A DNA stretch of 64,000 bases, from IMG/VR virus record IMGVR_UViG_3300010430_000005, positions 19,467 through 83,466 of that record, one strand, 5' to 3'. The DNA is from a virus. Taxonomy: Duplodnaviria; Heunggongvirae; Uroviricota; Caudoviricetes. The notes under the pieces were generated by a model. That model was not told the DNA's origin and did no database searches. It was given only the letters and a program-made list of their open reading frames with translations. Below are positions 3,741 through 42,428 of this stretch, one piece after another. The stretch's first letter is position 1, and each line of letters begins with the position of its first letter. The position numbers were made by a program, and so were the translations under genes.

Positions 3741-5186
3741 ATGAGCCTTTTAGATAAAATGCTTAAGAGCGGCAGCACTAAGAATACTACACTATTGTCC
3801 AAGTCGGACTTTTTCGGAGGAGACGAGTCCAACATTGTTCCTATTGGCATTCCGATTCTTAACACGGCTTTCAGCGGAGAAATTGACGGCGGTTTGACAC
3901 CAGGACTTATTGTTGTCGCGGGAGCGAGTAAGACGTTCAAAACTATGATTTCTTTGCTATGTATGAAAGCATTCTTAGATAAATACGATGACGGTATCGC
4001 TCTGCTTTATGATTCAGAATTTGGCATTACACCTGAGTATATCGAAAGTTTCGGGATCGACACAGAACGAGTTGTCCATATACCCATCGAGAATATCGAA
4101 ATACTGAAATTTGACCTTGTAGGTAAGCTACAAGAAATCGATAAAAAAGATAATGTCTTTATTATGATAGATTCTGTAGGCAACTTGGCTTCTAAAAAGG
4201 AAGTCGAAGACGCCGAGAATGAAAAGTCTGTAGCAGACATGACTCGTGCTAAATCTCTCAAATCGTTGTTTAGGATCATCACTCCTCACCTAACAATGAA
4301 AAAGATTCCTTGCTTGGCTATCAACCACATATATCTCGAGCAGGGTCTTTATCCGAAAGCTATTGTCTCGGGTGGATGCTTAGATGGTTCTACGGAAATT
4401 ATTATGTCCGACGGTTCAACAAAGAAGATTCAAGACATAGACGCTGGCGAATCCGTACTTACTCTTGAAGGCGGGCGTGAAGTTACGCACACATGGGACC
4501 CCGACACATTAGAAGAAGGAACGCCAGAGTGTTACGAAATAAAGTTCGACGATGGTAGTAGTGTCATTTGCTCGGATTCGCACCGGTTTATGAATATGAA
4601 CGGTGAATGGGAAGAAGTGTCATTACTTAACGTCGGAGACGTTCTGGGGCAAGAAACAAAAAAAATCACTTCTATAAAAAAAATAGGTAAGCGGCCCGTA
4701 TACGATATTACAGTCAGTGACGTGGCCCATTACATCTTAAAAAACGGCTTAGTGTCTCACAACACAGGTGTGATGTATTCTGCAAACCAAGTGTTCATCA
4801 TTACTAAATCGCAAGAAAAAGATGGCACTGATCTAGCAGGTTACAAATTCACCATCAACATTGAAAAATCGAGATATGTACGAGAAAAAGCCAAACTTCC
4901 ATTTACTGTTTTGTACGAAACAGGTATCAGAAAATGGTCAGGAATGTTTGACTTAGCACTCGAATTCGGTTATGTTGTAAAAGCGAATCAAGGCTGGTAC
5001 AACAAGGTAGACTTCGAAACAGGCGAAGTGATTGAACCTAAGTGCCGAGCCAAAGACATAGACAACGATGACGAGTTCTTCGAAGCGCTAGTTAAAGATT
5101 CGGCTTTCAAAAAATTCATAGAGAAAAAATATAAGTTGGGTGCCCCGTTGTTAGATCAAGGGGAGCATCAGGAACCTGAGGAGTAA
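3741..5186 (+). CDS. uvsX: UvsX/RecA-family recombinase interrupted by an in-frame mini-intein
   Basis: RBS ggagaataatATG. RecA-type Walker A in GLIVVAGASKTFKT. Extein similarity to UvsX resumes after the insert (TGVMYSANQVFIITKS). Confidence 0.8.
   Translation: MSLLDKMLKSGSTKNTTLLSKSDFFGGDESNIVPIGIPILNTAFSGEIDGGLTPGLIVVAGASKTFKTMISLLCMKAFLDKYDDGIALLYDSEFGITPEYIESFGIDTERVVHIPIENIEILKFDLVGKLQEIDKKDNVFIMIDSVGNLASKKEVEDAENEKSVADMTRAKSLKSLFRIITPHLTMKKIPCLAINHIYLEQGLYPKAIVSGGCLDGSTEIIMSDGSTKKIQDIDAGESVLTLEGGREVTHTWDPDTLEEGTPECYEIKFDDGSSVICSDSHRFMNMNGEWEEVSLLNVGDVLGQETKKITSIKKIGKRPVYDITVSDVAHYILKNGLVSHNTGVMYSANQVFIITKSQEKDGTDLAGYKFTINIEKSRYVREKAKLPFTVLYETGIRKWSGMFDLALEFGYVVKANQGWYNKVDFETGEVIEPKCRAKDIDNDDEFFEALVKDSAFKKFIEKKYKLGAPLLDQGEHQEPEE
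4377..4763 (+). other. mini-intein (Hint domain) inside uvsX
   Basis: Insert starts at Cys (CLDGSTEIIMSDG, block A-like) and ends in ...LVSHN followed by Thr (+1 nucleophile). About 129 aa with no homing-endonuclease domain. Confidence 0.7.
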
Positions 5187-6616: not shown

Positions 6617-6777
6617 GCTATGTCGTGAAAGAATCCAAAATCGTCGAAGAAGAAACCGAAACCGTTATTGAATTCAAAAAACCCACAACCCAACTAAACA
6701 CCTTGTGTCGAAAGTTGAATCTAGGATCCGGGTTTGTCGGTTTTACTCCTCTATTTTTTGCGGAGTCGTGGAAATGA
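6613..6777 (+). CDS. small hypothetical protein (54 aa)
   Basis: Strong RBS acaggaggaataaaATGA overlapping the gp41 stop. Not in the ORF track because it is under 60 aa. Confidence 0.3.
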   Translation: MSYVVKESKIVEEETETVIEFKKPTTQLNTLCRKLNLGSGFVGFTPLFFAESWK

Positions 6778-7184
6778 ACATAACTTTTGAAGGGGCGGTT
6801 CCGGATTTCATAACAGAAGAAATGCAAAAATTATCTGACTTTGTTGTTGAGTATTTTGGCCCTGGGTTAGACTGCGAAGTGGTAATGGTTTTTGACGATA
6901 ACATGGCAGAGCACGAGCACGGATTTATTGGGCAGACTAATGATGATAGCTACGAAGCGGAGATAAACTCTAACATGTCGTACGAGGAAACCATTCGAAG
7001 CATATTTCACGAAATGGTACATGCGCACCAGTTGTTCTCTGGTAAATTGGTCGTGGAGAAAAGCAATAAATACTGGGAAGGACAATGTTTTTCGCAATGC
7101 GAATATAGCGATTCTCCTTGGGAAATAGAAGCCCACCAAAAAGAAAATGACATGTATTCATTATGGGAGTTCAAGTATGGATGA
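6774..7184 (+). CDS. hypothetical protein with HExxH (zinc-metallopeptidase-like) motif
   Basis: ATGA overlap start. The motif FHEMVHAHQ contains HEMVH. Confidence 0.4.
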   Translation: MNITFEGAVPDFITEEMQKLSDFVVEYFGPGLDCEVVMVFDDNMAEHEHGFIGQTNDDSYEAEINSNMSYEETIRSIFHEMVHAHQLFSGKLVVEKSNKYWEGQCFSQCEYSDSPWEIEAHQKENDMYSLWEFKYG

Positions 7185-8805
7185 GATAGACACAAAACAG
7201 CTAATAATAGAAGCTTATCTAGATATAGTAGAAACGAATATGGCCGTGCCGGTCCAAAGCGATTTTGTCGAATACGGCATAAAACGAGGCGCCATCCGTT
7301 ACCATTTTGGTAACATGGAAAACCTGCATAGATATATAAGCAATAACCATAAAAATGCTATTAGCGAATATTTCTCTACGGTAGACAATGTCTTCAAAGG
7401 CGGCGAGTACGTCGAGCAAAATATGAACAAGAAAAAATATGTCGTGACAACTGCTGTTGCGGATGCTAAGGCACACAAAGGTTTTCTTGATTCTATAAAA
7501 CATTACTGCAAAACCCACGATGCTAGCATAATAATAATGCCTTGCGAAAGCATCACTAACAGTTTTGAGCGCAGAACTGCGACTTTTGATAAAGAATTCA
7601 ACAACGAAGATTATATATTCGTCACAGACGACACTCAGCTAAACGAAAATATTTCGTTATGTAGCATTCAAGTATCGGCCAAGCAAATAAAGCCCATAAC
7701 GGGCCTTAACCGAATAGGTCACCGTGAGGGTTCTTATGTTTTTGCGAGTCCGAAGCAATTCTTAGAGTACGTACCCACAGGACATTCTAGGGGTAAAAAC
7801 TATGCTGTCATGACTCCGGGCGCATGCACCAAACCAAGTTATTATTCGGATACGTTTGTTTCTAAACGACTTTCCTACATCGCGGACCATGACCACACAT
7901 ACGGTGCACTAATAATCGAGATAGAGGACGACAAGACTTTCCACTTCAGACAAGTGCAGGCAGATGAAGAAGGTAAATTTATTGATTTAGGTGTGATGTA
8001 CTCGCCCGAAGGAACAACTAAAGATGTAGAAACTAATGTTATATTGGGCGATGTGCATGCGGCGCAGGTAGACAAAGATGTAGTAGATTCTTTCATAGGA
8101 GCAATGAAAGACATAAACATAAAAAGGTGCTTCCTACACGACATATTTGACGGACACTCTATAAACCACCACATTACAACAATAGGCGAAAGAGCTATGA
8201 GAGCTCTGTATAAAGAGCAATCACTAGAAGAAGAGCTCAGAGTTACTTGGTCCGTAATCAATCACATAAGAGAAGGTTTGGGTGCTGACCACACATATGT
8301 AGTAAAATCTAACCACGATGAGTTTCTTGATCGTTACTTGAAAGAAGGTAGGTATATAGATGACCCAGAAAACCATTACATTAGCTTAAAGATAGCACCT
8401 TCTCTTTTTGGGGAGCTTTGCGGAGATCCTTTGGTGGCCGGTCTAATTTTATCGAACGGTATAGAAACTTTCGAGAACATAACATTCCTTCGTCGCGATT
8501 CGGACGTTACTGTGGGCGGTTCTCAATGCGCAGCACACGGAGACCTAGGCTTGAACGGTGCCAAATCCTCCCTCAACGGTTTAGAAAAAATATACGGTAA
8601 TTGTGTAGTCGGGCATGTCCACAGCGCTGCTATACAACGAGGTGTTTTTCGAGTAGGCACGTTCACTAAGATGGATATGGGATACAACAGAGGGCCTTCG
8701 TCGTGGACACATACTGCATGTCTCTTGTACGAAAATGGCCAACGACAACTCATCAATTGCGTAAATGGTAAGTTTTACAAAGATCAAGAACAAAATACGC
8801 AATAA
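7177..8805 (+). CDS. calcineurin-like metallophosphoesterase domain protein
   Basis: Ordered motifs LGDVHA (GDxH), FDGHS, KSNHDEF (GNHD/E) and VVGHVHS (GHxH). Has a large N-terminal extension. Confidence 0.55.
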   Translation: MDEIDTKQLIIEAYLDIVETNMAVPVQSDFVEYGIKRGAIRYHFGNMENLHRYISNNHKNAISEYFSTVDNVFKGGEYVEQNMNKKKYVVTTAVADAKAHKGFLDSIKHYCKTHDASIIIMPCESITNSFERRTATFDKEFNNEDYIFVTDDTQLNENISLCSIQVSAKQIKPITGLNRIGHREGSYVFASPKQFLEYVPTGHSRGKNYAVMTPGACTKPSYYSDTFVSKRLSYIADHDHTYGALIIEIEDDKTFHFRQVQADEEGKFIDLGVMYSPEGTTKDVETNVILGDVHAAQVDKDVVDSFIGAMKDINIKRCFLHDIFDGHSINHHITTIGERAMRALYKEQSLEEELRVTWSVINHIREGLGADHTYVVKSNHDEFLDRYLKEGRYIDDPENHYISLKIAPSLFGELCGDPLVAGLILSNGIETFENITFLRRDSDVTVGGSQCAAHGDLGLNGAKSSLNGLEKIYGNCVVGHVHSAAIQRGVFRVGTFTKMDMGYNRGPSSWTHTACLLYENGQRQLINCVNGKFYKDQEQNTQ

Positions 8806-14791: not shown

Positions 14792-15349
14792 ATGTCACTT
14801 TGGGGCAATACAGATAACCTTGCGGGTGCGCCTAAATGGCTAGCGCCAACATTAACTATAGACGCAACATCAAATACGGTTGTTATTGCGGCGTCGGATT
14901 CTATAGTTTATGCTGACCATGGCCTAGTTACTGGAGACCCAGTAACTTATTCTAGCGACGATGCAAATAACGTAATAGTCGGCCTTACCGACTCTACTCT
15001 ATACTACGCTATCAGAGTAGACGAAGACACTATCAAATTAGCTAGCAACACATCAAACGCAATTGCGGGTACTGCTGTTGATATTACAGATGTTGGTCTT
15101 AACGATGCTGACACTCTACAGAAAACACCAGATAACCTTTATTTTGTAGACACGACTGAAGTAGGTGTTGCTGCAAACAAAGCAAAGGGCTTCACTGCTC
15201 CTGGCTGGTGGGTATACGAAACATATACAGATAGCGGCTCAAATACTCGCCATAAAGCTGTTTGTGTTGCGGAACTATCTGTTGCGGTCGGTACATCTGG
15301 CGATGCTGGCGTCGACGGTAGCGATGACGCGGTTGTTGCTGATTCCTAA
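14792..15349 (+). CDS. Ser/Thr/Asp/Ala-rich hypothetical protein, possibly virion-associated
   Basis: RBS aaaggagaagttcATG. Composition resembles capsid-decoration or fibre proteins. Has a late promoter. Confidence 0.45.
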   Translation: MSLWGNTDNLAGAPKWLAPTLTIDATSNTVVIAASDSIVYADHGLVTGDPVTYSSDDANNVIVGLTDSTLYYAIRVDEDTIKLASNTSNAIAGTAVDITDVGLNDADTLQKTPDNLYFVDTTEVGVAANKAKGFTAPGWWVYETYTDSGSNTRHKAVCVAELSVAVGTSGDAGVDGSDDAVVADS

Positions 15350-19455: not shown

Positions 19456-19503
19456 CGCCGTAGTGTGTCAATGTTAAAACCGTGTTACAAAAGGAGACGT
19501 AAC

Positions 19504-34336: not shown

Positions 34337-34810
34337 ATGACTAAACTTTTCAATGACTGCGAATTCAACGAGTTTGGTGGCGATCTTATTTCGATGGCTC
34401 TTGTTGCAGAAAATGGGCAAGAGTTTTATGAGGTGCTGAATCTAGAGAATAATTACAATTATGGCCCTTGGGTGTCGAAAAACGTCGTCCCGATTTTGAA
34501 CAAAGACCCCATCATTAAAGATTTGTTCACTAATAGACTTTGGCACTTCCTGAATCAATGGAAAGAAGTCCATATTATCGCCGATTGGCCTGACGACATT
34601 AAATATTTCTGCATGTCTCTTGTTACAGGCCCAGGAAGAGCAATCAACACACCTCCGAAAATGACTATGCAAATAGATAGGGAGTTATCGGCAGAAACAA
34701 GTGCTATTCCGCATAACGCTCTTGAGGATGCTAGGGCAATTAAACGAAGCTGGGAGCGCCGTGAGAAAGAGATGATCGGTTACGGGATAAAAGGTGTTGA
34801 CTTTGTGTAG
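34337..34810 (+). CDS. DEDD-family (DnaQ-like) 3'-5' exonuclease
   Basis: The N-terminal acidic motif region (DCEFNEFGGDLISMA) and C-terminal PHNALEDARA (Exo III H-x4-D) fit the DEDDh fold. Confidence 0.5.
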   Translation: MTKLFNDCEFNEFGGDLISMALVAENGQEFYEVLNLENNYNYGPWVSKNVVPILNKDPIIKDLFTNRLWHFLNQWKEVHIIADWPDDIKYFCMSLVTGPGRAINTPPKMTMQIDRELSAETSAIPHNALEDARAIKRSWERREKEMIGYGIKGVDFV

Positions 34811-35959: not shown

Positions 35960-36429
35960 AGGATTCGTTTGGATATGTTATAAAGAGCACATTAAAAGGA
36001 GATTTAGACATGACTCGTGACGAATTCCAAAAAATAGTAGATGAAATAACTGGTGGGAAATATTACTCGCCAGAACGTAAGCGAAAAAACACAGGTATAC
36101 AAGGTCGTAAAGGTTATTACGGACCTACTATTGAACTAAAAGTAGAATGGATGACTGGTGGTGCTTGGGGTGGAAACTGTTGGGATGATTCGGACCCAAG
36201 TAGTTATTGCCCAGAACCTGACAAAGAACCAGAGTTAGAACACATAGATCAAATTTTGGAAAAGGTTGCCCCTACGATTGGGTTTATTCAATACAAGACT
36301 TTGATGCAAAAAGTTGAGTATGATACCAGAACTGAACTTGAATACTATGGAAACCATACCAGTTACGGTATCAAGAAAATTCTAATAGAAGATATTTGGG
36401 AATTTTTGCAGGAAAAGGGTTATGTATAG
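35956..36429 (+). CDS. hypothetical protein
   Basis: 157-aa ORF with ATGA overlap. Confidence 0.4.
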   Translation: MKDSFGYVIKSTLKGDLDMTRDEFQKIVDEITGGKYYSPERKRKNTGIQGRKGYYGPTIELKVEWMTGGAWGGNCWDDSDPSSYCPEPDKEPELEHIDQILEKVAPTIGFIQYKTLMQKVEYDTRTELEYYGNHTSYGIKKILIEDIWEFLQEKGYV

Positions 36430-36799
36430 TGACATAATATTGTGGGTTGGCCTACCTGGTTCGGGCAAAACCTACAATGCCCAAAAATACTGTGATATTG
36501 TCATTGATGATATCACTGACCTTTCGCAGTTACCATCCTCAGAAGAAATTAAAGGAAAGCGATTGGGTATCGCAGATGTAAACTTCTGCGACAAGAAAAT
36601 TCTTCACAAAGCAATATCAAAAATCTTGGAAATTTATCCAAGCGCAATGATTGACATATATTATTTTGAAAATGACGTCGACAAATGTCGTGCTAATGTG
36701 TTATATCGTAATGATGGTAGAAATGTAGAAGGAACCATTCTAAGATTTGAAAAAATATACGAACCGCCTAAGTGGGCGGCTAAAATATGGAGTGAATAA
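36422..36799 (+). CDS. P-loop kinase (polynucleotide 5'-kinase-like, stand-alone)
   Basis: Walker A VGLPGSGKTY at the N-terminus. 125 aa. Sits directly upstream of an RNA ligase. Confidence 0.45.
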   Translation: MYSDIILWVGLPGSGKTYNAQKYCDIVIDDITDLSQLPSSEEIKGKRLGIADVNFCDKKILHKAISKILEIYPSAMIDIYYFENDVDKCRANVLYRNDGRNVEGTILRFEKIYEPPKWAAKIWSE

Positions 36800-36800
36800 A

Positions 36801-37853
36801 ATGCTACTAACACGCGACGAATTCAGAAATAAAGTTTTTGAACGAGATAACCATCGTTGCGTGATATGTGGCGCAACTGAAAGTGATACTGTCAAACTTG
36901 ATGCACATCACATCATTGAACGCCGTTTGTGGTTGGATGGTGGCTATTATGTTGATAATGGGGCAACTCTTTGCGATAAAGGCGAAGATGGTTGTCACAT
37001 GAAAACAGAAATCACAACATTGTCAGTTGACGATATTCGCATTGCTGCCAACATTCAAAAACCTATCATACCAGAAGATATGTATGCAGACCACGTTTAT
37101 GACAAATGGGGTAATATCATATTGGGCAATGGAACCAGAACTAAGGGTCCGTTGTTTGGAGACGAATCTGTTCAAAAGGTTTTGTCGAAACATCCAAACT
37201 TTGAAAGTTTGTTTGTTGACTATGTGAAATATCCGAGAACTTATCACCTTCCATGGTCATTGGGTATTACGGATGATGATCGTATTATGCGTGATTTGTC
37301 TAATTTCGAAGGTAAGCGTGTTATTGTTACACGTAAAATGGATGGCGAAAATTTCACAGGATATAATGACTATAGTCATGCACGTTCTGTGGATGGACGC
37401 CACCATTATACCAGAGATTGGGCAAAGAATTTTTGGATGCAGCGTTCTTATGAATTGCCAAAAGGATGGCGTGTATGCGCTGAAAATCTCTATGCAGTCC
37501 ATTCAATTCGGTATGATGATCTTGACAGTTATCTTATGGGGTTTTCGATTTGGAATGATAAAAACGAATGCCTGTCTTGGGATGAAACAGTAGAATGGTT
37601 TCAACTTCTAGACATTCCTAGCGTTCCAGTCTTGTATGACGGTATCTTTGATGAAGAAAAGATCAAATCTCTTTATGATGTAAAGGAAGATTATGATAAT
37701 CATGAAGGGTATGTTATGCGAACTGCGGATGGGTTCAACTATGGAAATTTTAAAAATTGTGTTGCTAAATTCGTAAGACCAAATCACGTGCAATCGCAAA
37801 AGCACTGGTTTTATGGGAGAAGCGACCATGATGTAAATGGGATGAAAGAATGA
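36801..37853 (+). CDS. HNH-motif domain fused to Rnl2-like ATP-dependent RNA ligase
   Basis: RBS ggagtgaataaaATG. N-terminal HNH motif CVICG...LDAHHIIERRLW...NGATLC...CH. Nucleotidyltransferase motif I VTRKMDGENFTGY (compare Rnl2 KIHGTNF). Confidence 0.5.
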   Translation: MLLTRDEFRNKVFERDNHRCVICGATESDTVKLDAHHIIERRLWLDGGYYVDNGATLCDKGEDGCHMKTEITTLSVDDIRIAANIQKPIIPEDMYADHVYDKWGNIILGNGTRTKGPLFGDESVQKVLSKHPNFESLFVDYVKYPRTYHLPWSLGITDDDRIMRDLSNFEGKRVIVTRKMDGENFTGYNDYSHARSVDGRHHYTRDWAKNFWMQRSYELPKGWRVCAENLYAVHSIRYDDLDSYLMGFSIWNDKNECLSWDETVEWFQLLDIPSVPVLYDGIFDEEKIKSLYDVKEDYDNHEGYVMRTADGFNYGNFKNCVAKFVRPNHVQSQKHWFYGRSDHDVNGMKE

Positions 37854-38122
37854 GTATACATTTCAATTTCGACATAACAAATCCGTTTGTAAAAAAACAC
37901 TGCGGCAAAACCATTTTTTTCTTTGAACCAAAAGTATCTAAAAACAAGGCAATCTGCTTCCAGTTCGATGGATTTGATTGGAAGCAGATATTTGAAATTG
38001 GTTTTTGGTGGAGAGATAAAACTATGGGTCATTGGGGTATGAGTATAGAATTCGGACTTTTAGGGTTTTGGTTCAACTTAGACTTTTATGATATCAGACA
38101 TGTAGAGGAAGATGATGAATAG
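37850..38122 (+). CDS. hypothetical protein
   Basis: 90-aa ORF with ATGA overlap. Confidence 0.35.
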   Translation: MSIHFNFDITNPFVKKHCGKTIFFFEPKVSKNKAICFQFDGFDWKQIFEIGFWWRDKTMGHWGMSIEFGLLGFWFNLDFYDIRHVEEDDE

Positions 38123-38627
38123 AAAATATCTTGTATTTTTGGACATTGACGGTGTTTTTACATCGTCAAGAGTCCATTATGCACATAATGCAGAATATGG
38201 TATGTGGCATAGGTTTGATCCTGTTGCGGTCGATTTTTTGAATCGTATCCATGACACTTATCCTGTTGAATTTGTTCTAATGTCAACATGGAAAAATAAT
38301 ATAAAATATGATCATAAAATGATCGAACATTGGGTTCGTTCTGCATTTGCTAATAGTGGGTTTCGTGGAATGATTGCCAAACCATGGAAGGCTGATCCGG
38401 ACGATTTTGCGGTAATGAAGCGTTGGGATAGGGCACATGAAGTCAAAGATTATCTAGAAAACTTCGGAGAAGATGTAAAAGACTTCATCTTGTTTGATGA
38501 TAACGCATATCGTTTCAAGGAAATTCTTGGTAAAGGTAGACTTGTTAGAACCGATCCAGACAATGGATTGCTACATAAACATATGCTAAATGCTATGTCT
38601 ATCATGGGAACTTGGGTGGAGAAATGA
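38112..38627 (+). CDS. HAD-superfamily phosphatase (DxDG motif; Pnk-phosphatase-like)
   Basis: N-terminal LVFLDIDGVFTS matches HAD motif I DxDx(T/V). Motif IV-like FDDNAYR. Confidence 0.5.
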   Translation: MMNRKYLVFLDIDGVFTSSRVHYAHNAEYGMWHRFDPVAVDFLNRIHDTYPVEFVLMSTWKNNIKYDHKMIEHWVRSAFANSGFRGMIAKPWKADPDDFAVMKRWDRAHEVKDYLENFGEDVKDFILFDDNAYRFKEILGKGRLVRTDPDNGLLHKHMLNAMSIMGTWVEK

Positions 38628-38718
38628 AATAGACTGTCGGATTTTGAACATATTCGCAGTATGGCCCATTGCGGGAACAAACTTTTACTTTCTGTCTACG
38701 CAAAAAAGGAGAAAAATA

Positions 38719-39018
38719 ATGAAAAAGTTCTTGACAGCAGTTGCTATTTGTGTTACTCTGCCAACAATCGCACTAACAGAAACAGTTTATTACCCACAAG
38801 AATCTTGTGCAGAAATTGTTTCTCAAGAATATTCTACTGGTGGCGGTAATACGTCTTGGCAATATCTGGAAATCCTGTGTAAAGACAAAGATGGTAAATA
38901 TACTGGTTTTGTCGCTAGTTGGGGTTCTGTTGCAGGGTTTCTTGGCGCTGGTCGTTGGGATATGGTCGATCGTTTCGATTATGTTCCGTACAAAGGAAAA
39001 ACTCTGAAAGTAGAGTAA
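38719..39018 (+). CDS. small secreted protein
   Basis: RBS aaaaggagaaaaataATG. N-terminal signal peptide KKFLTAVAICVTLPTIALT. Confidence 0.45.
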   Translation: MKKFLTAVAICVTLPTIALTETVYYPQESCAEIVSQEYSTGGGNTSWQYLEILCKDKDGKYTGFVASWGSVAGFLGAGRWDMVDRFDYVPYKGKTLKVE

Positions 39019-39025
39019 AAAGTTC

Positions 39026-39054
39026 TTGACAAGCACATATACATGTAGTATAGT
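39026..39054 (+). promoter_or_regulatory. sigma70 consensus promoter TTGACA-17-TATAGT driving the tRNA-like RNA
   Basis: -35 at 39026-39031 and -10 at 39049-39054. Predicted TSS around 39061, 7 nt before the acceptor-like stem. Confidence 0.6.
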
Positions 39055-39067
39055 GCTTAAATAGTTT

Positions 39068-39187
39068 CCCGCTGTGGTGTAACGGTTAGCACACGTGCAC
39101 AAAGTCAATCCTGCAAAGGATTGTTACAGCAACAAAATTGCATATCATTGGAAGATCGTGGTCTAGGTTCGATTCCTAGCGGCGGGA
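39068..39187 (+). ncRNA. tRNA-like non-coding RNA, ~120 nt, non-canonical (candidate Y RNA, or intron/insert-containing tRNA)
   Basis: Acceptor-like stem CCCGCTG/CGGCGGG (one G-U pair). D-arm GTGT-AACGGTTAGC-ACAC. Canonical T-arm CTAGG-TTCGATT-CCTAG. Discriminator A with no encoded CCA. About 67 nt lie between the D- and T-arms instead of about 22-40, containing the hairpin CAATCC-TGCAAA-GGATTG, so no standard anticodon arm could be drawn by hand. Confidence 0.5.
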
Positions 39188-39261
39188 CTGTTAATTGAAT
39201 ACCTAGGTTAGATTCGGCAGAGTCTAATTAAAACAAAACTAACCTGAAAGGAGAATATAAG

Positions 39262-40686
39262 ATGAACACTTTTTCTAACGCAGTTGCTAATATCAAATCA
39301 AAAGAAATCTCACGCACCGAAAACGGTATGAAAGCTTTTGCTACTTCCGATTCTAAAGTTCTTGACCTATTTGGTAAGATCGGTTCTGGTCGCGGTCGTG
39401 ATATGTCTCGCGAATTTATGGCAGCACTTGGTGAAGATCAAGAACTTGCGATTCGTGTTCTCCTATGGGCACGTGATGTTCGTGGTGGTGCGGGTGAACG
39501 CGAAACTTTCCGTTCGCTACTAAAGGCGCTAGAAAACGGCAATCCGACACTTGCTGGTAAAATCATGCACCTAATCCCGGTTCTGGGTCGTTGGGATGAT
39601 CTGTTCGTGTATGAGGATGCTATCAACCGTAAAGCAGCACTTCGCATGTATGCAGATGCTCTTACGGACGGAAATGGTCTAGCCGCAAAATGGGCACCGC
39701 GTGAAAAGTCAACCAAGAAAGAACGTGCAGCAATGCTACGCAAATTCATGGGTCTTTCACCTAAGGAATATCGTAAACTCCTAGTCTCGAATACGAATGT
39801 TGTGGAGACTCAAATGTGCGCGAAGGACTGGGGAGGTATCGACTTTTCGAAAGTTCCTTCTCTAGCGTCTGCACGTTATCAAAAGGCATTTGGTCGTAAT
39901 GCGAGCGAGCAATATGCAGCATACATTCGTGAACTCCAAAAGCCTCAGGCAGAGCGCAATCCGAAAGTTAAAATTAATGCTGGTGCAGTATACCCATATG
40001 ATATTGTGAAGTCTCTATCAAAAGGTAATGCTGCTGTTGCGGATGCACAATTCGAAGCACTCCCAAACTATGTAGGTGATTCTAAAATCCTACCAATGGT
40101 TGATGTTTCGGGTTCTATGTATACTCCACTTGCTGGAAATACCAATGCACTTGAAGTTGCTATCTCACTAGGTCTGTATCTTTCTGACCGCACCAGTTCT
40201 GATTTTAAGGACATGTTCCTTACTTTCTCTGGTGAGTCAAAGATCGAAACCCTAAAAGGTAGTCTGTCACAGAAGTATAACCAACTTCGTCGTGCGGAAT
40301 GGGGAATGAACACTAACCTACACTCTGCGTTTGAGGAAATTCTTCGAGTTGCAAAGGACGGCAATGTCTCGCAAGAGAACATGCCAGACACTGTTCTTAT
40401 CCTTAGTGATATGCAGTTTGATCGTTGCGTTCGTCACGATGACAATGCTCTTGGCATGATTAAACGCAAATATGCAGAAGCGGGATACACTATGCCTTCT
40501 GTTGTATTCTGGAACCTAACTGCACGTGCTGATAACACACCAGTTAAAACTAACGACAAAGGCGTTGCCCTTGTTTCGGGTTTTAGTCCAGCGATCATGG
40601 CAACGGTTCTTGGTGCGGATCCTACGGAATTTACACCATATGCAATGATGCTAAACACTATCATGAGCGACCGTTACAATTTTTAA
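39262..40686 (+). CDS. rsr: Ro60-like protein (TROVE domain + C-terminal vWA/MIDAS domain)
   Basis: RBS aaaggagaatataagATG. N-terminal TROVE-like region (LFGKIGSGRGRD...IRVLLWARDVRGGAGER...LIPVLGRWDDL). vWA MIDAS motif MVDVSGSM with a downstream Ser/Thr/Asp series. Same architecture as bacterial Rsr. Confidence 0.65.
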   Translation: MNTFSNAVANIKSKEISRTENGMKAFATSDSKVLDLFGKIGSGRGRDMSREFMAALGEDQELAIRVLLWARDVRGGAGERETFRSLLKALENGNPTLAGKIMHLIPVLGRWDDLFVYEDAINRKAALRMYADALTDGNGLAAKWAPREKSTKKERAAMLRKFMGLSPKEYRKLLVSNTNVVETQMCAKDWGGIDFSKVPSLASARYQKAFGRNASEQYAAYIRELQKPQAERNPKVKINAGAVYPYDIVKSLSKGNAAVADAQFEALPNYVGDSKILPMVDVSGSMYTPLAGNTNALEVAISLGLYLSDRTSSDFKDMFLTFSGESKIETLKGSLSQKYNQLRRAEWGMNTNLHSAFEEILRVAKDGNVSQENMPDTVLILSDMQFDRCVRHDDNALGMIKRKYAEAGYTMPSVVFWNLTARADNTPVKTNDKGVALVSGFSPAIMATVLGADPTEFTPYAMMLNTIMSDRYNF

Positions 40687-40688
40687 TA

Positions 40689-40712
40689 AAAGGGGCTCTA
40701 CGGCGCCCTTTT
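40689..40712 (+). terminator. probable rho-independent terminator
   Basis: AAAGGGGC-tctacg-GCGCCCTTTT directly after the rsr stop. Confidence 0.45.
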
Positions 40713-40753
40713 ACAATAAGGACTGATTCGTGAGAATTGAAAGGTAAAATGAT

Positions 40754-40957
40754 ATGAGCGAAAAATATGAAGTATGTACCATTGAAAGTGAACGTGGTTG
40801 GGGTCAGAAAAGAGAATATGACCTTTTTGATACTTATGAAGAAGCAAAAAAATATCGCGATCATATAAACAGTTTCAACAAACCTCTAGAAAAAGGCGAA
40901 ATTGCCCCTGATTGGTATATGATTGCAGAACAAGAAATACGAATAGTTGAAAATTGA
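40754..40957 (+). CDS. hypothetical protein
   Basis: 67-aa ORF with RBS gaaaggtaaaatgatATG. Confidence 0.4.
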   Translation: MSEKYEVCTIESERGWGQKREYDLFDTYEEAKKYRDHINSFNKPLEKGEIAPDWYMIAEQEIRIVEN

Positions 40958-40968
40958 TTAAAGAGGGG

Positions 40969-40997
40969 TTGACAATGCCTCTCTTTCGCTTTATGTT
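40969..40997 (+). promoter_or_regulatory. sigma70-like promoter TTGACA-17-TATGTT
   Basis: -35 at 40969-40974 and -10 at 40992-40997. Confidence 0.45.
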
Positions 40998-41025
40998 AAT
41001 ACTGTAGATGTAGATAGGTTATAGC

Positions 41026-41274
41026 ATGTATAATAGCGAAGCAGAAAAGAAAGAGCGTCGGAAACAAATGGTAGAATCCGCTCTTTCGGATTACCGAAAC
41101 AAAACCAATACAACAAACGCTGGAGTTAATATTTTGCGTTATTCGAATCAGGGTCTGATTAGAGTAAAAGAATTTGTTAGTCCAAACGAGTTTATGGATT
41201 GGTATCCCCGCCATCAAGGTTATGTAATTCTTCGTCTGGCAAAACTTGGTCTTTTAGTATATAACGACAACTGA
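41026..41274 (+). CDS. hypothetical protein
   Basis: 82-aa ORF. Confidence 0.4.
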   Translation: MYNSEAEKKERRKQMVESALSDYRNKTNTTNAGVNILRYSNQGLIRVKEFVSPNEFMDWYPRHQGYVILRLAKLGLLVYNDN

Positions 41275-41303
41275 CGATATGTGCTTGTATATTATGGACG
41301 CAA

Positions 41304-42428
41304 ATGAAAGGACATGTAATGTTCGTTGAAGCTTTAATGTTTATTGTTCCGGTTCTTGTGTGGCTATGCGTAGTAGTGCTGTATTTCCATTTCACCGTAA
41401 CATGGAAAGAGGCTCTGCTACAGGGCGGAATAACGGTATTAGTCATTACTTTGGTTTTTGGTGCTGGTAGCTATAGTGCAACACACGACGTTAAGTACGT
41501 CAATGGCGCCGTAACTTCTAAAAAGATTAAGCAACAGAGTTGTCCTTGGGGTTGGAACGACTACACTGACGGTTTCTGTACAGAGTATAGAACTCGTTCT
41601 GTTCCTGATGGCAAAACGTGCACGACAGATTCAAAGGGTCGCCGCTCGTGCCGTACCAAGTATAAGACGCAATATAACTACATCTATCCGTGGGAGCGAA
41701 AATATTATGTCTTTAGCGACATAGACAGGACTTTCACTATCAGTAGGGTAGACCCGCAAGGCGCTAACACACCGAGTCGTTACGATGAAGCTCAAAAAGG
41801 CGATCCGGTCGCGGCTACTGTTAATTACACCAATTACATCAAAGGAGCATCTGACAGTCTTTTTAACGAAAGCTTGGATGATCTCCCTCCTATTGCATAT
41901 CCTAGGGTAAAGGATTATTACAAAGCAAATAGATTTATTGTTTTTGGGTACAAATACTCTAACGATAGCTTTAAACTATGGAATAGTCGCCTAGCCGAAG
42001 TGAATCGAAATATTTCAAAAACAGGCGCGAACGCTATTATTGTGGTCACAGAGCAACCTAAACAGTTTGCAGATAAATTAGCAAAGGCCTGGGACGCACA
42101 TAATATCAATGATGTGGTTACTGTGATAGGCATGCAGGGAGACAAAGTATCTTGGGTAGATGTACGAAGCTGGAGCGACAATAGCATTACGAATTTGAAC
42201 ATTCGAGATGGTATTACCGAAGTAGGAGAGCTTGACGTCGACAAGATTATGTTTATAGTAGAAAATGCGATACGTGAAGGATACAAACTAAAGCCGATGG
42301 AAGACTTCGAATACCTCGCAGACGACATTAAACCTCCTATGTGGGTATATGTTTTTGGCATGATTGTACTGTTAATATGCACACCGTTGGCAACTTTGGC
42401 CCTACACAAATATGATATCTTTAAATGA
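41304..42428 (+). CDS. membrane protein (N- and C-terminal TM segments, large extracytoplasmic domain)
   Basis: N-terminal TM segments FVEALMFIVPVLVWLCVVVLYF. C-terminal TM segment WVYVFGMIVLLICTPLATLAL. Confidence 0.45.
   Translation: MKGHVMFVEALMFIVPVLVWLCVVVLYFHFTVTWKEALLQGGITVLVITLVFGAGSYSATHDVKYVNGAVTSKKIKQQSCPWGWNDYTDGFCTEYRTRSVPDGKTCTTDSKGRRSCRTKYKTQYNYIYPWERKYYVFSDIDRTFTISRVDPQGANTPSRYDEAQKGDPVAATVNYTNYIKGASDSLFNESLDDLPPIAYPRVKDYYKANRFIVFGYKYSNDSFKLWNSRLAEVNRNISKTGANAIIVVTEQPKQFADKLAKAWDAHNINDVVTVIGMQGDKVSWVDVRSWSDNSITNLNIRDGITEVGELDVDKIMFIVENAIREGYKLKPMEDFEYLADDIKPPMWVYVFGMIVLLICTPLATLALHKYDIFK

Follow-up and report, generated by a model that had tools for sequence, protein, structure and literature searches.

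The 64,000-nt stretch analysed here (the window; positions 19,467 to 83,466 of IMG/VR record IMGVR_UViG_3300010430_000005, a Caudoviricetes virus) carries on one strand a sigma-70-type promoter, a tRNA-like RNA and the gene of a Ro60-like protein (Table 1). Positions follow the numbering of the window, and all calls are computational. An earlier, sequence-only reading had singled out this combination as a candidate Ro60/Y-RNA module, and every element that it named lies where it had been placed. We find that the linkage between gene and RNA is conserved across about 80 phage loci, in both search directions, and that it involves a recurrent structural element, which we call the handle. Other loci are cited by number (L001 and so on).

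The tRNA-like RNA and the Ro60-like protein

The RNA had been described as about 120 nt long with an acceptor-like stem, a D arm and a T arm, and this description is confirmed. The acceptor stem pairs CCCGCUG with CGGCGGG (39068-74/39180-86) and has a discriminator A at 39187. The D arm lies at 39077-92, the T arm (CUAGG-UUCGAUU-CCUAG) at 39163-79, and an anticodon-like arm with the loop AUUGGAA is formed by 39094-95 and 39144-58. CCA is not encoded in the window, where CUG comes after 39187; in the close relatives L085, L086, L088 and L006, an RNA at the equivalent place has an encoded CCA.

Whether search programs see a tRNA here depends on how they are run. Nothing was returned by a whole-window Rfam search at gathering thresholds, whose speed filters miss the tRNA-like RNA, or by default ARAGORN over the whole 64 kb, whose no-intron setting misses it. 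The Rfam tRNA model (RF00005) matches in local search only, with 39.6 bits (gathering score 29, E 3.9e-7) and 61 nt where the model expects 13, and ARAGORN with introns allowed reports a tRNA with a 50-nt insert. In silico removal of 39096-39143 leaves a 73-nt RNA that ARAGORN calls tRNA-Pro(UGG). With the insert looped out, C27G28 and AUC pair with GAUCG in a perfect 5-bp anticodon stem around the 7-nt loop AUUGGAA; the extra sequence is therefore 48 nt, not the 30-40 nt first estimated, and the statement that no anticodon arm can fold does not hold. Two alternatives were dropped: the intron site given by ARAGORN at 31/32, which leaves two stem mismatches compared with the perfect stem obtained with 28/29, and a GUGCA/UGCAU pairing within the insert, which is seen in the window and lost in relatives.

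The insert is the most conserved part of the window RNA, and inserts of 48-49 nt occur at the same or a nearby position in L085, L086, L006 and L088. It contains a hairpin of CAAUCCU (39106-12), the loop GCAA (39113-16) and AGGAUUG (39117-23), followed by UUACAGCAA (39124-32). To compare structures, we aligned 12 RNAs: besides that of the window, the set has five RNAs of four close relatives, two each from Cronobacter phage S13 and Aeromonas phage Aeh1, and the remaining two from other metagenomic phages. Helices common to all of them are those of acceptor, D arm, handle hairpin and T arm, with 94.8% of cells paired compared with 64% after shuffling and 40-49% with slid partners. Compensatory changes occur at 19 of the 23 pairs, the acceptor, D and T stems included; for the handle hairpin, pairing is 97.6%, with compensatory changes at five of seven pairs. 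Covariation therefore supports the structure of the window RNA, and the agreement exceeds chance. Single-sequence folding of the 120-nt RNA was uninformative (z -1.71) and did not recover the cloverleaf.

No anticodon stem is common to the 12 aligned RNAs. Those of S13 and Aeh1 lack an anticodon loop and have the handle hairpin in its place. These handle-bearing tRNA-like RNAs (S13, L001:4895-5018 and 5025-5140; Aeh1, L003:7059-7175 and 7193-7314) are named 'tRNA-Ser' and 'tRNA-OTHER' in S13 and 'tRNA-Val' in Aeh1 by RefSeq, the second Aeh1 copy being unannotated. There is no canonical tRNA gene in the 64-kb window, whereas most related loci have the Ro60-like gene in or beside large tRNA clusters.

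The gene starts 74 nt past the RNA, close to the 75 nt estimated earlier, and on the same strand. As modelled, its product is Ro60-like in architecture; by family it is a DUF2828 member and not an Rsr orthologue, and the term "Ro60 ortholog", used before, is too strong for a protein that PF05731 does not match. Pfam assigns it to DUF7788 (PF25043; 165.8 bits against a cut-off of 27.1, E 1.2e-48) and DUF2828 (PF11443; 73.5 bits against 29, E 2e-20), and PHROG 850, 'RNA-binding protein', matches it at full length (1.9e-145). An AlphaFold2 model of the 474 residues (pLDDT 76, pTM 0.68) predicts an alpha-helical HEAT-type ring (about 30-266) joined to a vWA domain with a MIDAS (metal-ion-dependent adhesion site; about 276-470). 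In a Foldseek search of the PDB with this model, the top seven matches, which are all those with E <= 0.001, are Ro60/TROVE structures aligned over the full length (E 1.7e-8 to 2.3e-5). The TROVE-plus-vWA architecture first proposed thus stands at the level of fold, over both ring and vWA, but not as a Pfam TROVE match. The MIDAS motif noticed at the outset is present, with DVSGSM at residues 281-286 and all five MIDAS residues (D281, S283, S285, T351, D383) invariant in 35-38 homologues.

Homologues occur in 711 of 50,697 GenBank phage records, with carriers among Felix O1-like (Felixounavirus), KVP40-like, Aeh1-like, Listeria, Staphylococcus, Enterococcus, Campylobacter and mycobacterial phages; in mycobacterial phages the annotation reads 'Ro-like RNA binding protein'. 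The homologue of Felixounavirus mio is 42% identical to the window protein and lies directly 5' of a tRNA cluster. When phage genomes were searched with megablast, no near relative came up. Eukaryotic DUF2828 members exist as well, according to a note in the Aeh1 record and to plant papers.

The promoter ranks first among the sites scored in 38000-41500, and equivalent promoters lie 5' of the tRNA-like RNA in the relatives L086 and L088. It had been called perfect; with 11 of 12 consensus positions matched, it is near-perfect. The consensus terminator scan gave no terminator-like site between promoter and open reading frame (ORF), so that a single transcript is the simplest reading, and we infer that one transcript carries the tRNA-like RNA, the leader handle and the Ro60-like gene. 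The hairpin past the stop codon is absent from the output of the same scan because of its short U run. About 270 nt past the gene, at 40960-40997, another terminator-like hairpin overlaps a second promoter-like site (TTGACA-17-TATGTT, 10/12). Just 5' of the promoter ends a small ORF (38716-39018) with a signal-peptide-like N-terminus (MKKFLTAVAICVTLPTIALT...); it has no family match and is kept 5' of the RNA in the relative L085.

Table 1. Elements of the Ro60-like locus in the window, with the basis of each call
Feature	Position	Strand	Basis or remark
Sigma-70-type promoter, TTGACA (39026-39031)-17 nt-TATAGT (39049-39054)	39026..39054	+	Consensus 11/12
tRNA-like RNA, 120 nt	39068..39187	+	Local Rfam, ARAGORN with introns, 12-RNA alignment
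48-nt insert between tRNA positions 28 and 29	39096..39143	+	In silico deletion gives tRNA-Pro(UGG) call
Closed handle, hairpin and UUACAGCAA	39106..39132	+	Motif scan, covariation, covariance model
Linear mini-module (second handle) in 5' leader	39205..39246	+	Covariance model R2, orthologous copies
Shine-Dalgarno region AAAGGAG	39247..39253	+	Directly after the 3' G of the handle, 8 nt before ATG
ORF of Ro60-like protein, 474 aa	39262..40686	+	Starts 74 nt past tRNA-like RNA
Terminator-like hairpin past stop codon, AAAAGGGGC...GCGCCCUUUU	40687..40712	+	RNAfold -12.3 kcal/mol

A handle shared among phage loci

The first clue to the handle came from the 330 nt 5' of homologous genes in 80 IMG/VR loci, which contain modules in tandem, built of AGGNNNN, a linker of 3 nt, CAGCAA, a variable part and NNNNCCUG. 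Its anatomy is a 7-bp helix opening with A-U, G-C and G-C (5' AGG..., 3' ...CCU), a G after the 3' strand, and the linker and CAGCAA straight after the 5' strand. A first, permissive motif scan was discarded, with 223 matches against about 185 in shuffles. The strict scan of 859 kb of loci gave 314 matches on the strand of the gene, against 36 on the other one and 60 in shuffles (both strands). The distinct module sequences number 247, and they accompany homologous genes in about 80 phage contigs. The linker is 3 nt, with the core beginning exactly 10 nt past the first A, in 204 of 215 modules. Positions that the scan leaves unconstrained are conserved too (U5 88%, its partner A 88%, the final core A 80%), and the modules have a U-rich 5' flank and UUGA in the 3' flank.

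The association also appears when the search is reversed. Among 110 IMG/VR loci fetched by the 19-nt handle pattern alone, 45 encode the protein within stretches of 1-15 kb, mostly 80-600 nt downstream and on the same strand. A covariance model (R2) was built from 71 short modules, with the clade of the window left out, and run unfiltered over the whole window; its two best matches are the two handles of the window, the leader handle (39205-39246; 19.5 bits, E 0.019) and the closed one (39117-39160; 16.1 bits, E 0.13). A minus-strand motif match at 15228-15280 is a chance one, antisense inside an ORF (E 0.54). The sequence-only reading had recognised no Ro-binding helix. A family-specific helix is nevertheless present at 39106-39132, and the second copy in the leader had been missed. 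Given its conservation beside this gene in many phages, the handle probably serves the protein as the site for binding partner RNAs, and we propose 39106-39132 as the putative binding site for the Ro60-like protein in the window.

Modules are not confined to the upstream side of the gene. In coliphage mio (L089, MN850631), four unannotated modules lie among the annotated tRNAs downstream of the gene. The one at L089:7369-7494 is a permuted tRNA-like module of 126 nt that overlaps the minus-strand coding sequence mio_111 (locus 7362-7592), which is probably a mis-call; the others are at 6699-6766, 6866-6920 and 7282-7350. In mycobacteriophage UPIE (JF704113), the 360-nt gap behind gp53, the 'Ro-like RNA binding protein', is taken up by three modules (L090:5461-5709), and the middle one is a permuted tRNA to which the Rfam YrlA model gives 39.8 bits. 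In the stretch of the T4 tRNA region that was scanned, no match exceeded 10 bits, and the T4 stable RNAs C and D, checked as candidate members, do not belong to the family.

The second handle of the window lies in the mRNA leader and consists of AGGUUAG (39205-11), AUUCGGCAG (39212-20), an A-rich spacer and CUAACCU-G (39239-46). It ends at 39246, adjoining the ribosome-binding site AAAGGAG (39247-53), with the ATG at 39262. This arrangement recurs: in no fewer than 52 of the 65 distinct loci, the start codon comes 11-35 nt after the end of a module, and several of the 13 exceptional loci miss the strict pattern narrowly. The orthologous leader modules of L006, L085 and L086 score 38-40 bits with R2, and relatives show compensatory changes for both of two competing leader pairings. 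The position suggests that the leader handle may be an operator through which the protein limits its own translation, a possibility to which we give somewhat less than even odds and which is the least secure part of our reading.

What the handle carries varies widely. The simplest cargo is an A-rich spacer alone. Hairpin cargos have 7-nt loops of the form CU-NNN-AA, like anticodon stem-loops, with triplets that include UUU, UGU, CUU, UCU, GUU and CAU; several short modules have CAU-anticodon-like loops. Other cargos are T arms, tRNAs missing only the acceptor stem, and whole circularly permuted tRNAs, in which the order is handle 5' strand, CAGCA, T arm, acceptor hairpin (loop often NCCA), D arm and handle 3' strand. 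Large modules of 100-170 nt are found in many loci (for example L016:~1090-1340, L025:~1500-1740 and L076:5490-5603), with recurring GAGUUUCGAUUUCUC hairpins and with AAAAAGUAGAAA before the 3' strand; in several loci cargos of this size match no Rfam family. A permuted transfer-messenger RNA (Rfam RF04321, 76.7 bits) lies at L059:2153-2440, about 3.5 kb 5' of the Ro60-like gene.

Relation to known Ro60 and Y RNA systems

Ro60 binds a conserved helix made by the ends of Y RNAs, and bacterial YrlA has a tRNA-like domain (PMC4201824). The phage loci resemble bacterial Ro60 (Rsr) and YrlA in several respects: a ring-plus-vWA protein, small RNAs on the same strand within a few kb, and RNAs that join a protein-binding helix to a tRNA-like domain of T arm, acceptor stem and D arm. 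Some relatives of the window locus have the exact permuted layout of YrlA. Long permuted modules get 31-46 bits from the Rfam YrlA model (RF02553; gathering score 69), with E 4e-7 to 6e-3 and alignments that often span the whole model. In these alignments the tRNA-like domain alone aligns well; the outer stem and GNCGAA do not correspond to the handle.

The window RNA itself stands further from YrlA. It has the YrlA-type tRNA-like domain of T arm, D arm and acceptor-type stem, and its gap of 74 nt to the gene falls within the proximity expected of YrlA (about 4 kb, same strand). Its connectivity is opposite, however: it keeps tRNA topology, with the acceptor end open and the handle closed by a GCAA (GNNA-type) loop, whereas relatives such as L050:1330-1448 have the connectivity of YrlA. 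The YrlA model has no match in 38950-39300 even at E <= 10, and the GNCGAA(N)G motif is absent from 39060-39260 by inspection; the family-specific core is CAGCAA, in a handle of AGG helix, CAGCAA and CCUG. The proposal that this is a Y RNA is thus supported as far as a tRNA-mimicking partner RNA by the gene is concerned, but not as membership in YrlA, given the lack of GNCGAA and of an Rfam match and the unpermuted topology.

Red algae and archaea have tRNA genes that are circularly permuted or contain introns, with additional sequence at non-canonical places in the anticodon arm; their products mature to ordinary tRNAs by way of a bulge-helix-bulge splicing motif. The phage modules are like them in having tRNA bodies in both normal and permuted gene order, and unlike them in that the extra sequence is the most conserved part and occurs also without a tRNA body. 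Because both topologies occur in one family, and the handle occurs without a tRNA body, we take the handle for a functional arm rather than an intron.

Among phage systems, the Ro60 of Thermus phage phiLo binds two Y-like RNAs, Yrl1 and Yrl2, encoded 5' of its gene (PMC12135203; PDB 9KOP, 9L5Y). It shares with the window a phage-encoded protein and partner RNAs just 5' of the gene. It differs in being an annotated TROVE-domain protein (PDB title), with 18% sequence identity to the window protein, and its RNAs carry a CGAA motif in a stem-bulge-stem; the cited text mentions neither a tRNA-like body nor a leader copy at the ribosome-binding site (PMC12135203). The Ro60-like gp130 of Felixounavirus Bas63 counters the Ppl defence system, and the authors of that work guessed that some tRNAs beside gp130 are Y RNAs (PhageMaP preprint, PMC11482910). 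By way of the mio homologue, gp130 probably belongs to the same family as the window protein; no partner RNA was identified there, whereas in mio four handle modules lie between annotated tRNAs.

The neighbourhood of the module is one of RNA repair, as the sequence-only reading had it. Located 1.4-2.5 kb upstream are an HNH-RNA ligase fusion (36747-37853; PF01844 and PF09414, 2.4e-26; PHROG 24030, 1.5e-136) and an RNA-repair phosphatase of the family HAD_SAK_2, 'HAD domain in Swiss Army Knife RNA repair proteins' (38112-38627, 2.8e-19). Farther 5', the ORF at 34337-34810 is exonuclease-like, with a sub-threshold Pfam match to 3'-5' exoribonuclease Rv2179c-like and the PHROG name 'Rnase H'. In close relatives, a PP-loop ATPase of the lysidine-synthase family (PF01171; L085:1500-2129, L086:2064-2699, L088:1968-2609) precedes the RNA and the core of a class II aminoacyl-tRNA synthetase (PF00587; L085:5150-5851, L086:5085-5801) follows the gene. 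This setting fits RNA or tRNA handling without fixing a mechanism. A 125-aa ORF at 36422-36799 has a P-loop (GLPGSGKT) and no family match.

Interpretation and alternatives

We favour, with a probability of roughly 0.7, the view that the locus encodes a divergent phage particle of the Ro60/Y-RNA type, in which the protein would bind the handle and the tRNA-shaped cargo would engage tRNA-binding enzymes or act as a decoy for host tRNA nucleases. We do so because the predicted fold best matches Ro60, the linkage of gene and RNA is conserved, permuted RNAs of related loci match the YrlA model below its gathering score, and RNA-repair genes lie nearby. On these grounds the proposal that first drew attention to the locus, a Ro60-type protein with a tRNA-mimicking RNA just upstream in an RNA-repair setting, holds up well.

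Several results weigh against this view. A Pfam scan of the protein to E 1 gave no TROVE (PF05731) match, only DUF7788, DUF2828 and a sub-threshold VWA_2, and neither phmmer nor a 38-sequence family profile found Ro60 among PDB sequences; homology to Ro60 thus depends on a structure prediction of moderate confidence (pLDDT 76). Nor is the canonical motif by which Y RNAs bind Ro60 (GGUCCGA / GNCGAA) present. The handle was partly set by our own regular expression, which makes the pairing statistics of linear modules circular; the non-circular evidence consists of the strand bias, the shuffles and two covariance-model tests. In 65 of the 110 pattern-fetched loci the protein gene is absent from the 1-15-kb stretch. 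The leader handle of the window is a weak member of the family (core CGGCAG, 19.5 bits), and a competing local hairpin, GGUUAGAUUC-GGCA-GAGUCUAAUU, is predicted at -10.2 kcal/mol compared with -5.8 for the long-range helix P1. Binding, expression and processing in this phage are read from sequence, predicted structure and comparative genomics.

Under the Ro60/Y-RNA view, a single transcript would begin at the promoter 39026-39054, and RNase P and 3' trimming would release the tRNA-like RNA. Binding of the handle by the protein would resemble that of the conserved Y RNA helix by Ro60. The tRNA-shaped part could then recruit tRNA-handling enzymes, candidates being the neighbouring HNH-RNA ligase and HAD phosphatase and the CCA-adding enzyme and polynucleotide phosphorylase (PNPase) of the host, or it could divert host defence nucleases that cleave tRNA. 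Protein bound to the leader handle would hide the ribosome-binding site and so limit its own synthesis. These steps are modelled on Ro60-Y RNA recognition (PMC4201824), the binding seen in phiLo (PMC12135203) and the phenotype of Bas63 gp130 (PMC11482910).

The best-placed alternative is that the RNA is a working tRNA-Pro(UGG) with an intron or extra arm, which phage enzymes excise and reseal or which decoding tolerates, the gene being merely adjacent. Much at the locus could be read in this way: deletion of the insert gives a canonical tRNA here, and likewise in L006b and L088, relatives encode the 3' CCA, an RNA ligase gene lies nearby, and RefSeq annotates the homologous RNAs of S13 and Aeh1 (113-122 nt) as tRNAs. 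Yet the anticodon is what orthologues fail to keep. It is UGG in the window, L006b and L088 and UGA in L085, while L086 has an 8-nt loop; these orthologues stand beside proteins that are 81-89% identical, and the handle is conserved. Pro tRNAs carry G37, whereas position 37 of the window RNA is A. The S13 and Aeh1 versions have the handle in place of an anticodon loop, and the handle recurs in acceptor-closed permuted RNAs, in modules of 50-65 nt without a tRNA body and in mRNA leaders. We therefore consider a functional tRNA improbable.

Less probable still is that the handle serves phage tRNA clusters as a signal for processing or punctuation, such as an RNase recognition element, and has nothing to do with the Ro60-like protein. 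Modules frequently stand in tandem, with U/A-rich linkers between them (consensus CCUG-UUGAAUUU-AGG), and have tRNA genes among them, which would suit such a role, as would the 65 pattern-fetched loci that have no DUF2828 gene in the stretch examined. Against it, the ribosome-binding site of this one gene is abutted by a module in at least 52 of the 65 distinct loci, and a co-occurrence of 41% within a few kb is far over any plausible background. The three UPIE modules follow the Ro-like gene with no annotated tRNA gene in 9.4 kb, and the T4 tRNA cluster, in the stretch scanned, has no handle. The lowest odds go to the idea that both elements are purely cis-acting leader structures, not trans-acting partners, that control the downstream gene on a signal such as tRNA status: the lack of a terminator between RNA and ORF and the two mutually exclusive, covarying pairings of the leader handle next to the Shine-Dalgarno region would agree with it, but modules lie downstream of the gene or kilobases off in mio, UPIE, S13 and Aeh1, many loci have 3-6 modules with different cargos, and the acceptor end of the tRNA-like RNA is processable, its CCA being encoded in relatives.

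Returning to the Ro60/Y-RNA view, the handle has a possible counterpart outside phages in the Class I RNAs of Dictyostelium. These RNAs have a 6-bp terminal stem, an 11-nt motif by its 5' strand, the ends AAG and CUGU, and clustered genes; their mechanism is reported as unknown and the family as unique to Dictyostelia (Kjellin et al. 2021, PMC7919456). Those of D. discoideum read GUUGAC-C-UUACAGCAA-variable-GUCAAC-UG. Like phage modules, they are RNAs of about 60 nt whose 5' and 3' ends are joined by a short helix, with CUUACAGCAA straight after the 5' strand, a conserved 3' CUG(U), a variable A-rich interior and clustered genes. The window copy shows UUACAGCAA (39124-32) after the 5' strand and CCUG after the 3' strand, in a loop-closed helix and with a linker 1 nt shorter; linear phage modules fit the pattern of terminal helix, (C)CUUACAGCAA and 3' CUG(U) better. 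Unlike the phage RNAs, Class I RNAs belong to a eukaryotic host, have their own upstream promoter element and a linker 1 nt longer than that of the phage handle, and have no known tRNA-like cargo; their sole named binder is the RRM protein Rnp1A.

Searches gave hints of the same likeness. The Rfam model RF01414 matches the phage module L025:4534-4587 over the full model length at 33.8 bits (gathering score 41.5), the E-value being 0.01 when 45 kb were searched and 2.8e-5 in a local search; it has no match at E <= 10 in the window region. A model of D. discoideum sequences only gave 11 matches at E <= 1 in 840 kb of phage loci, all weak (15-19 bits), ten of them on the gene strand and seven of them modules. 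A motif search of the partial proteomes in the supplement of Kjellin et al. found only an unrelated vWA protein. It is conceivable, if rather unlikely, that the handle is the recognition element of the whole DUF2828 branch, eukaryotes included, and that Class I RNAs are eukaryotic counterparts partnering a DUF2828 protein. If so, the phage versions would be a modular display in which one protein presents many cargos shaped like tRNAs or anticodon loops, as decoys or repair scaffolds against host tRNA-cleaving defences. Class I RNAs are abundant and developmentally regulated; the resemblance, if real, would link to a protein family an RNA class that has been an orphan for twenty years.

Phage Ro60 proteins with Y-like RNAs were already known, but only for canonical or annotated TROVE proteins, namely those of 22 phages (Chen et al. 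2014, PMC4201824) and of phiLo. The searchable literature yielded no description of RNAs linked to DUF2828. What is described here is a divergent Ro60/Y-RNA variant with a definable RNA handle, in a branch that is far commoner in phages than the TROVE branch and of which Bas63 gp130 already has a counter-defence phenotype. The handle allows annotation of hundreds of small RNAs that are unannotated or misannotated, such as the 'tRNAs' of S13 and Aeh1 and the mio module overlapping a coding sequence. As a concrete, mutable binding-site hypothesis, it opens to direct test the biology of a protein family that is widespread in phages, and with it the question of what Ro60-like proteins do in infection.

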